A stretch of DNA of 31,234 nucleotides from a virus. Taxonomy: Duplodnaviria > Caudoviricetes. Location of the stretch: positions 1-31,234 of IMG/VR virus record IMGVR_UViG_3300014775_001500; one strand, 5' to 3'. Below are positions 23,581-25,301 of this stretch, piece after piece (position 1 is the stretch's first letter; the number at the start of each line of letters is the position of its first letter). The notes beneath the pieces are model-generated. The model ran no database searches. It saw nothing but the letters and a program-made list of their open reading frames with translations, and was not told where the DNA came from. Position numbers and translations under genes: made by a program.

Positions 23581-23636
23581 CCCGCTGACGAGACCTTGGC
23601 AGAGGTCGAAACGCGCCGCCAGCGCGTCCGGGATGC
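23581..23636 (+). ncRNA. type I hammerhead ribozyme HHR1
   Basis: CCCG-CUGACGA-GACCU(UGGCAG)AGGUC-GAAA-CGCGC(CGCCA)GCGCG-UC^CGGG-AUGC; predicted cut after 23628. Confidence 0.92.
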
Positions 23637-23668
23637 AATCAAGCAACCAACACAACGGAGAACAAACC

Positions 23669-24205
23669 ATGAAATCGATCAAGATCACGCAATCCGCCGC
23701 CGACGCCCTCGAAGAGATCCAAGCGCTTCGCCGGGAGCGCAAAGGCTACAAAACCAAAAAGATCGACTTGTTGAGCGAGGCGATCGATTGGTTGTTCAAC
23801 GAAGAGTACAAAGCCAACAAATACCTTGCAAAACACGCCGTCGACGGCGCTTCGTACTCTTTTGTCTTGCAAGGCGTCGATCATAGCCGCGCGCCCGGGT
23901 ACGACAACGGAACCCCGATCTTGACGATCGAAAACATTCGAAGCGCTCAAGTCGTGACCGGGTCAACGCTGGAAATCTTGCTTGATCACGACTACATCCC
24001 GGTTGTCGTCGACGGCCGCTTTGACGAGGCCGGGGCCGCCGAGCTTGTCGCCCGGTTAGACGACGACGCCCCGGCGCGAGCCTTGACGCCCGACGAAGCG
24101 CGCGAGTTCAAACTTTGGCATTGCCTCGAAGCCGTCGCGGCGCACTTCATTCGCCAGCGCGAGATCGTCGACGCGGCGCAAGCTGCGCGCTTGGTCAACG
24201 CGTAA
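23669..24205 (+). CDS. early protein with N-terminal RHH-like DNA-binding domain
   Basis: MKSIKITQSAADALEEI...KIDLLSEAIDWL; leader ACAACGGAGAACAAACCATG. Confidence 0.7.
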   Translation: MKSIKITQSAADALEEIQALRRERKGYKTKKIDLLSEAIDWLFNEEYKANKYLAKHAVDGASYSFVLQGVDHSRAPGYDNGTPILTIENIRSAQVVTGSTLEILLDHDYIPVVVDGRFDEAGAAELVARLDDDAPARALTPDEAREFKLWHCLEAVAAHFIRQREIVDAAQAARLVNA

Positions 24206-24259
24206 CCCGCTGATGAGGCCCCGGCGGGGGCCGAAACGCCGCGACGGCGTCCGGGATGC
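24206..24259 (+). ncRNA. type I hammerhead ribozyme HHR2
   Basis: CCCG-CUGAUGA-GGCCCC(GGCG)GGGGCC-GAAA-CGCCG(CGA)CGGCG-UC^CGGG-AUGC; predicted cut after 24251. Confidence 0.94.
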
Positions 24260-24284
24260 AACCAACAACAACGGAGAACGAACC

Positions 24285-24383
24285 ATGAAAAGAGAAACGA
24301 TCGCTTTGATCCTTGAACACCTTGGCAACTTGATCACGTTTGCGGCCCTCGGCGCGGTCGGTTGGCTTGCTTTGTTTTTGTAA
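24285..24383 (+). CDS. 32-aa single-TM peptide (not in the ORF track)
   Basis: Leader ACAACGGAGAACGAACCATG; MKRETIALILEHLGNLITFAALGAVGWLALFL followed by TAA TAA. Confidence 0.75.
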   Translation: MKRETIALILEHLGNLITFAALGAVGWLALFL

Positions 24384-24404
24384 TAAAAACAACACACTGT
24401 GAGA

Positions 24405-24483
24405 AAGTAGAAAAAAAACAGAAAAAAAGCATTGCGTTTGTTCAAGGATGTATGCAATAAACGATCTCGAAGGCAACGACGCC
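24405..24483 (+). promoter_or_regulatory. early promoter P2 (diverged copy of P1)
   Basis: AAAAAAAG(C/T)ATTGCGTTTGTTCAA and GAAGGCAACGACGCC shared with P1; the -10 is a weaker match (CAATAA). Confidence 0.55.
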
Positions 24484-24503
24484 GAAACAACGGAGGACAC
24501 AAA

Positions 24504-24938
24504 ATGAAAACCGTCGCGGATACAAAATACAAGACAATCGAACACAACGGCCGACAAGTTCAAGTGATGGAAATCCCAATGAACTATTTCACGATCGACC
24601 AAAACGACGACGGTTGTTGGTCGGTCAACGCCGCAAGCGACCAAGCTGCAAAAAGCACAACCGAAGACAACGACAACGACAACGACAACGACAACGACAA
24701 CGACAACGGAGAACAAGCAATGAACAAGATCCAAATCTATGTTGACAACCTCGGCGACAACGCAAACTTTGAGCTTTTCGAGCGGATCGCCGAACGTGTT
24801 TTCGGTCATTACGCGTCGGTTGTCGTGTTCAACTTCCCGGGCGTCAATCAGCGCGGTAACATCGACGAGGAATGGTTTTCGGAGTTGCTCGCCGACGTTT
24901 GGGATCAATATGTCAACGACCCGTTTTTTTCAAACTAA
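24504..24938 (+). CDS. early hypothetical protein with (DN)7 linker and a second in-frame start at 24720
   Basis: GGAGG RBS before ATG 24504; internal ACAACGGAGAACAAGCAATG at 24703-24722. Confidence 0.7.
   Translation: MKTVADTKYKTIEHNGRQVQVMEIPMNYFTIDQNDDGCWSVNAASDQAAKSTTEDNDNDNDNDNDNDNGEQAMNKIQIYVDNLGDNANFELFERIAERVFGHYASVVVFNFPGVNQRGNIDEEWFSELLADVWDQYVNDPFFSN
24666..24707 (+). repeat. (GACAAC)7 microsatellite
   Basis: Seven perfect hexamer copies. Confidence 0.95.
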
Positions 24939-24977
24939 TCCGCCGCAACTGGCGACAACAACAACGGAGAACAAACC

Positions 24978-25244
24978 ATGAAAGTCTACACCTTGAAAAA
25001 CTCAAAAACTTGCAACGCTGGCGACATTCTCGACACAACCTTTGTCGTGGTCGACGATTTCACGGTCTACATTATCAATCGCAAAGGACGCAAAAACGAA
25101 ACCCACGGCTTGCGATCGCACGATGCGCGCGCCGAATACAAAAGGCGAGTTGACGCAGGGTGGAAAGTTTGCAAACGCGTTTTTTGCGACAACGAGATCG
25201 ACTTTGAGTTGCAATATCCAAACACTTGCTACACTAGAAACTAA
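24978..25244 (+). CDS. early hypothetical protein (88 aa)
   Basis: Leader ACAACGGAGAACAAACCATG; its TAA abuts HHR3. Confidence 0.75.
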   Translation: MKVYTLKNSKTCNAGDILDTTFVVVDDFTVYIINRKGRKNETHGLRSHDARAEYKRRVDAGWKVCKRVFCDNEIDFELQYPNTCYTRN

Positions 25245-25301
25245 CCCGCTGATGAGGCCCCGGCATGGGCCGAAACGCTGCGCCGCCAGCGTCCGGGATG
25301 C
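25245..25301 (+). ncRNA. type I hammerhead ribozyme HHR3
   Basis: CCCG-CUGAUGA-GGCCC(CGGCAU)GGGCC-GAAA-CGCUG(CGCCGC)CAGCG-UC^CGGG-AUGC; predicted cut after 25293. Confidence 0.94.

Follow-up and report, generated by a model that had tools for sequence, protein, structure and literature searches.

Compact type I hammerhead motifs behind shuffled small genes of a metagenomic tailed phage and their predicted role in RNA processing

The window analysed here is the whole of the 31,234-nt viral contig IMGVR_UViG_3300014775_001500 (Caudoviricetes), which has tailed-phage marker genes (terminase, portal, endolysin and DNA methyltransferase) on the minus strand and genes for a DnaB helicase, DpdA and HNH nucleases in a plus-strand arm. 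At the head of the plus-strand arm, amid small genes without PHROG or Pfam families, lies a cluster of three hammerhead ribozyme motifs, H1, H2 and H3. The motifs fall within 1.7 kb (623 nt from H1 to H2 and 1042 nt from H2 to H3), with one gene between the first two and a gene block between the last two (Table 1). Because the cluster precedes the replication genes, its transcript is presumably early RNA. No integrase was detected among the contig genes and no terminal repeat at the contig ends. The terminase did not identify a host, its matches being ~28% identical.

Table 1. Features of the hammerhead cluster in the window (aa, amino acids; ORF, open reading frame; gene orders are those compared in the text)
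Feature	Position	Strand	Description
Promoter-like cassette P1	23151..23229	+	A-tracts, TTGCGT at 23175, 17 nt, TAGATT at 23198, short hairpin; repeat families D9 and D18
Gene A, 107 aa	23250..23573	+	no PHROG or Pfam match; hammerhead next in 3/3 gene orders
H1, type I	23581..23636	+	stem I 23581-84/23629-32; core 23585-91; stem-loop II 23592-607; GAAA 23608-11; stem-loop III 23612-26; predicted cut after 23628
Leader	23637..23671	+	A/C-rich, GGAG and start codon; repeat family D1
Gene B, 178 aa	23669..24205	+	function unassigned; stop codon 24203-05 directly before H2
H2, type I	24206..24259	+	core 24210-16; predicted cut after 24251
Gene C, 32 aa	24285..24383	+	hydrophobic C-terminal half; P2 next in 4/4 gene orders
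Promoter-like cassette P2	24408..24486	+	copy of P1 between H2 and H3
ORF D, 144 aa	24504..24938	+	own leader; holds the in-frame gene E (72 aa, start 24720), which a second leader precedes
Coreless element	24936..24960	+	stop codon, hammerhead 5' arm, stem-III-like hairpin; no catalytic core
Gene F, 88 aa	24978..25244	+	function unassigned; stop codon 25242-44 directly before H3; hammerhead next in 2/2 gene orders
H3, type I	25245..25301	+	core 25249-55; predicted cut after 25293
Gene G, 295 aa	25332..26219	+	hammerhead upstream in only 1/4 gene orders

All three motifs have the exact CUGANGA and GAAA sequences around a three-way junction. The NUH triplet, which closes stem III with an A-U pair and leaves H17 unpaired, is GUC in each. 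Stem I (CCCG/CGGG) is open and stems II and III are looped in all three, with lengths for stems I/II/III of 4/6/5 bp in H1, 4/6/5 bp in H2 and 4/5/5 bp in H3. The cores begin at 23585, 24210 and 25249 and the GUC triplets end at 23628, 24251 and 25293. An earlier note, made from the sequence of this DNA, had described the elements as type I hammerheads, and the coordinates and the stem II and III pairings that it quoted were all correct. Its predicted cut sites were also rightly placed, each just 5' of a ribosome-binding site (RBS), and the 33-40 nt leader that it predicted before the AUG measured 40, 33 and 38 nt for H1, H2 and H3, respectively. For the minimal elements, the minimum free energy (MFE) structure was the hammerhead fold (-21.5, -27.5 and -22.0 kcal/mol for H1, H2 and H3); when H1 and H2 were folded in longer windows, another structure had the MFE.

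A search of the window with a sequence-only core pattern gave three matches, not above chance (shuffle mean 4.47). A descriptor that requires the pairings also gave three, and none of 200 dinucleotide shuffles yielded any. The earlier note had suggested a comparison with the Rfam hammerhead models. H1 matched RF00163 (Hammerhead_1, its best Rfam match) over model positions 1-45 of 45, with core and stems aligned, but at 28.5 bits (E 0.0036) it stayed below the cut-off of 34, and H2 and H3 were absent from the Rfam matches at E<=5. We conclude that the three motifs are real and, as sequence and structure, well supported. Cleavage is predicted because the core is intact and similarly placed ribozymes have published activity. 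None of the six sequencing runs listed for the stretch was an RNA run, and the contigs of four of them matched it only at low-complexity repeats, which is neutral as to cleavage. The earlier note had also taken the preserved stem pairing as a sign of selection on RNA structure; the pairings are as it described, but the three copies are paralogous, not independent, and better evidence for structural selection therefore comes from relatives.

To this end, a sequence-only pattern that did not require free stems II and III was found in 98 stretches of viral contigs and 19 stretches of genomes, the latter from several phyla and including Planctomycetota and Christensenellaceae bins. A stem II of at least 4 bp together with a stem III of at least 3 bp was present in 81 of the 86 unique viral matches, compared with a mean of 1.3 and a maximum of 6 when the interiors were shuffled. 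Both free stems were likewise kept in 14/18 genome matches (null mean 0.3). Using the pairing descriptor, we counted at least 108 unique copies, made up of the window's three and those in at least 79 other contigs. At least 19 contigs carry two or more copies and one carries at least 11, both being lower bounds set by the DNA examined, in which 60 of the 79 show a single copy. Copies on both strands of one locus were not seen among the loci examined. A blastn search of H2 against cultured phages returned four partial matches, none covering >80% of the query.

The copies share a consistent placement between genes. A stop codon closing a frame of at least 40 codons lies 3-14 nt before the core in 73/106 copies (8% at random positions), and in 39 of the 106 a stop codon directly abuts stem I. 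On the other side, a Shine-Dalgarno sequence and a start codon are found 15-70 nt past the cut in 90/107 copies, compared with 19% at random positions, and the median distance from cut to start is 37 nt (start found for 99/108). A Pfam family could be assigned to only 2 of the 83 downstream ORFs, and an anti-defence family such as ArdA to none of the 83. At eight other loci, 0/23 matches reached the Rfam cut-off of their family, the best RF00163 score being 28.8; over the window and these eight loci the RF00163 scores were 22-29 bits against the cut-off of 34. Standard annotation therefore misses this compact variant.

A feature missed by the earlier note is a possible pairing of loop II with the bases that follow stem I. 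This pairing spans 3 bp in H1 (GCA with 23634-36), 3 bp in H2 (GCG with 24257-59, one pair being G-U) and 4 bp in H3 (GCAU with 25298-301). Among the unique copies, 67/108 have at least three Watson-Crick pairs between loop II and the tail, compared with a mean of 42.4 and a maximum of 56 for permuted tails (1000 permutations). When identical loop/tail types were collapsed, which partly controls for relatedness, 54/88 were paired against a permuted mean of 33.4 and maximum of 46. The pairing is made by several different word pairs and covaries, and it is probably a stem I-II pseudoknot as in Perreault 2011 (PMC3088659). That paper found such a pseudoknot in ~40% of hammerheads, and a type II example depended on it to cleave fast (PMC3088659).

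Three further loci are of note. In one 43.8-kb viral contig (L057-L058), type I hammerheads number at least 11 over ~9 kb; their stem I varies, several different loop II/tail word pairs occur among them, and the contig is a better test case than the window. A 206-kb contig of a Gemmataceae bin, possibly a prophage, has three copies within 750 nt (L119, 2501-3244). A single copy with a 44-nt branched stem II insertion lies at 1036-1109 of L032.

Within the window, the cluster has six junctions, of which three hold a hammerhead, one the second cassette P2, one an in-frame repeat and one the coreless element. The description of the cluster as one operon in the earlier note does not hold, since P2 (24408-24486) lies between H2 and H3 and a ribozyme stands at only 3/6 junctions. 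The shared leader is present in seven copies (23227, 23647, 24263, 24482, 24698, 24956 and 25310). P1 occupies the same place in three gene orders; P2 is 87% identical to it over 47 nt and has a -10 hexamer that is a poor match in the window. A sigma-70 consensus scan called neither cassette, and it is the A-tracts, the hexamers and the conserved position that suggest that P1 and P2 act as promoters. No terminator-like site was found at the cluster junctions on the plus strand, and a motif search for stem III-GUC-stem I half sites, which would be trans-cleavage substrates, found none at the cluster's other junctions. The coreless element could have arisen by decay of a hammerhead, or could be a 3' hairpin without catalytic function. 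ORF D runs in frame into gene E through a hexamer repeat at ~24667-24708, which is translated as (DN)n and looks like an expanded shared A/C-rich leader.

Close relatives with ~93% identical flanking DNA give three further gene orders. With HH for a hammerhead, the window (order W, one contig) reads P1-A-HH-B-HH-C-P2-D/E-coreless-F-HH-G. Order X, in two contigs (L099 = L105, and L104), is P1-g49-HH-g254/96-HH-B-HH-C-P2-A-HH-E-coreless-g65-G. Order Y, in three contigs (L100, L102, and L103 = L101), is P1-A-HH-B-HH-C-P2-F-HH-g75-(methyltransferase-like ORF)-G, and order Z, in one short contig (L106), is B-HH-C-P2-g99-HH-E-coreless-G. Gene E stands alone in orders X and Z, and the coreless element follows it in 3/3 gene orders. 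In a hand-entered junction table of the four orders, limited to genes that have at least two different neighbours, the junction element was constant for the upstream gene in 5/5 cases and for the downstream gene in 2/6. Gene G has a hammerhead upstream in W and in 0/3 of the other orders. Since the junction class is constant for the upstream gene, crossovers would fall in the shared leader and the ribozyme would travel with the preceding gene. This suggests that in this lineage the ribozyme is inherited as a 3' tail of the preceding gene and that the shared leader is the likely crossover site for gene shuffling. The variants of stems II and III are mixed among copies, suggesting exchange between copies. 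In order Y, at ~5100-6000 of L100, an ORF judged by eye from its motifs to be cytosine-methyltransferase-like, with a long overlapping ORF in another frame, is inserted at the shared leader.

Gene G, at the end of the cluster, is a candidate for the recombination function. Its N-terminal domain was modelled with a predicted local distance difference test (pLDDT) score of 95.3. The top three structural matches were to Red-beta and RAD52 (Z 7.7-8.0, 102-108 residues aligned), with dsRBD folds within 1 Z; the Red-beta match had a Z of 8.0 and a root-mean-square deviation (rmsd) of 4.4 over 108 aligned, and the RAD52 match a Z of 7.8 and rmsd of 3.0 over 102. Foldseek gave E >0.001. By sequence, gene G matched no single-strand annealing protein (SSAP) family, and its family of 78 relatives is without an SSAP match in Pfam. 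Because of the predicted fold and the place ahead of the replication genes, gene G is likely to encode an SSAP with a Rad52/Red-beta/Sak-like N-terminal fold, and a part for it as agent of module shuffling is plausible.

On balance, and with modest confidence, we favour the reading that these hammerheads process early RNA into short units, each with ends and a lifetime of its own. Predicted self-cleavage after 23628, 24251 and 25293 would likely leave pieces of one to three genes, and the short loop II-tail pseudoknot is predicted to supply the stem I-II contact needed for fast cleavage. The ends left by such cleavage are a cyclic phosphate and a 5'-OH (PMC6765202). With type I topology, both hairpins (stems II and III) stay on the upstream product. 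The 3' end of the upstream piece would comprise two GC-rich hairpins and a cyclic phosphate; the downstream piece would begin with a 5'-OH and the 33-40 nt leader. Gene modules could in this way gain their own RNA ends and lifetimes without terminators. Their reshuffling is likely to have proceeded by recombination in the shared leader just behind the ribozyme, possibly by the gene G product. As stem I starts right at the upstream stop codon in 39/106 copies, cleavage could conceivably be gated by ribosomes that terminate there, which would link it to translation. Unmasking of the RBS by cleavage was considered and rejected. The predicted accessibility before and after the cut was 0.71 and 0.70 for H1, 0.65 and 0.69 for H2 and 0.60 and 0.64 for H3; being nearly unchanged, it suggests that unmasking is not the point.

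Several observations weigh against the processing reading. No copy tested reached the Rfam gathering score. In H1 and H2 the pseudoknot is only 3 bp long, where Perreault Fig. S4 takes 4 bp as its criterion, and 41/108 copies have fewer than three Watson-Crick loop II-tail pairs. Linkage to the upstream gene was seen in a single lineage, across four gene orders, and may reflect only where crossovers fall; in other clades it was 1/2 and 2/3, from too few informative families. Orders W and Z are single metagenomic contigs, which makes misassembly at repeats possible. For the part given to gene G, the structural match is middling and close to dsRBD folds (Z 7.3, rmsd 3.1, 80 aligned).

The earlier note had compared the motifs to synthetic ribozyme insulators. 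As a natural insulator, the selected function would be a standard, stable 5'-OH start that makes downstream translation independent of context, which we consider rather unlikely. RiboJ-type synthetic insulators likewise carry a self-cleaving RNA 5' of the RBS that makes a defined 5' end. RiboJ leaves structure on the downstream mRNA, unlike the type I motifs here, which leave stems II and III upstream and an almost unstructured leader downstream. The analogy is further weakened because the junction element follows the upstream and not the downstream gene. For genes G, E, F and g65/75, an upstream hammerhead is present in some cases and absent in others; gene G, which stands behind H3, is without one in 3/3 other orders. 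By contrast, gene B has a hammerhead before it whichever of two upstream genes it follows, the cut-to-start distance is tight across the family, and in fungal RNA viruses type I hammerheads precede ORFs and serve translation (PMC13725137), all of which speak for insulation. Against it, all seven genes already have the same open leader, and RBS accessibility is hardly altered by the cut. RNA stability enters here as well. RNase E prefers 5'-monophosphate ends. The stabilisation by a 5'-OH that the earlier note had proposed was not supported, since it depends on the host and RNA is degraded after glmS cleavage.

The glmS example underlies another explanation, that the hammerheads exert negative control: the cut would expose the 5'-OH end to a host 5' exonuclease, lower distal expression and stand in for a terminator. 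Cleavage of glmS leads to degradation (PMC6765202), terminator-like sites were not found at these plus-strand junctions, and a hammerhead follows the first gene behind a promoter-like cassette in 5/7 cases (6/7 counting each genotype separately), with P2 of the window as the exception. However, the RBSs downstream look strong, and one downstream gene is likely a recombination gene ahead of the replication genes. We regard negative control as decidedly unlikely.

A role as DNA repeats for gene shuffling and gene conversion, with catalysis neutral or lost, is less probable again. The breakpoints fall in the shared leader, which genes without a ribozyme also have, and covariation of the free stems and of the loop-tail pairing extends to contigs that are unrelated, something that DNA homology does not require. 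In favour of such a role are the differing gene order among relatives with ~93% identical flanking DNA, the mixed stem II and III variants and the persistence of the coreless element behind gene E. Same-strand tandem ribozymes give ligatable 5'-OH and cyclic-phosphate ends. The excision by hammerhead pairs of units (623 nt for H1-H2 and 1042 nt for H2-H3) that are ligated into circular RNAs, a possibility raised in PMC3088659, is the least probable explanation, given that 60/79 contigs show a single copy in the DNA examined, that a promoter-like cassette lies inside the second unit, and that a search for spliced or circular products in Perreault 2011 was negative (data not shown; PMC3088659).

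Returning to the processing reading, the layout of hammerheads at phage gene boundaries has been known since 2011 and is not new. In prophages, clustered hammerheads flank single genes or short gene blocks, and they cleaved in vitro and in E. coli (Perreault 2011, PMC3088659). The claim of the earlier note that repeated use at gene boundaries stands out here is thus anticipated by that paper, which already describes multiple hammerheads flanking prophage genes. In both cases several nearby hammerheads flank single genes or short blocks of varying identity, with a stem I-II pseudoknot that is probable here, and the paper proposes the processing of long phage transcripts, as we do. It also reports a viral hammerhead that lies 13 nt 5' of a start codon and for which an RNA end was mapped. 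The present case differs in that all copies belong to a single compact type I variant, with a stem I of 4 bp and a loop II-tail pairing of 3-4 bp, in a metagenomic tailed phage that has no detected integrase and whose relatives are reshuffled. Prokaryotic intergenic hammerheads below all Rfam cut-offs, the best at 26.4 bits against RF00163, are described as cluster #1,533,398 in a preprint (bioRxiv 10.64898/2026.10.21.760802), and the compact variant may already be listed there or in Dataset S1 of PMC3088659. A search of the PMC3088659 supplements for the variant's motifs, covering part of Dataset S1, gave 0 matches.

A second known system concerns the shuffling. In T4-type phages, genes are gained, lost and replaced at repeated intergenic PeSL cassettes among small non-essential genes (Arbiol et al. 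2010, PMC2839356). The cluster resembles this in having genes shuffled at repeated intergenic elements, with four orders and breakpoints in the shared leader. PeSL combines a sigma-70 promoter with a terminator stem-loop, and mini-circle DNAs from exchange between neighbouring cassettes are a further PeSL feature. The elements repeated here are instead a ribozyme, a promoter-like block apart from it and a common RBS leader. We tentatively suggest that the cluster could be a ribozyme-based PeSL counterpart, in which portable modules (RBS leader, gene, stop codon and hammerhead tail) would be reshuffled at the leader by the phage's own annealing protein, and in which any new order would still give separately ended mRNAs. 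No papers joining hammerheads with gene-shuffling cassettes were found in searches of an open-access collection.

Published accounts still leave undefined what self-cleaving ribozymes near phage genes are for (2019 review PMC6765202; PMC10085705), a question that the present example does not solve. What it contributes is a compact variant missed by Rfam, with ~100 natural copies in a consistent geometry of stop codon, ribozyme, short leader and RBS. It also supplies natural gene orders that hold the same gene with and without an upstream ribozyme. With these, reporter constructs could test upstream 3' protection, downstream insulation and downstream decay. Further study is most warranted for the upstream linkage and for the overlap with the stop codon.

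Other features of the window lie outside the cluster. Between the divergent arms, at 22965-23084, a 12-nt GC-rich repeat (family D4) occurs four to five times, arranged as two pairs; these copies are candidate origin iterons or operator sites. A 73-aa ORF on the minus strand (22489-22710) heads the late arm with the same GGAG leader and is without a Pfam match; its pattern resembles that of a ribbon-helix-helix regulator. DpdA (PF23859; 27736-28641) and the DNA methyltransferase (18682-20145) probably provide DNA modification against restriction.

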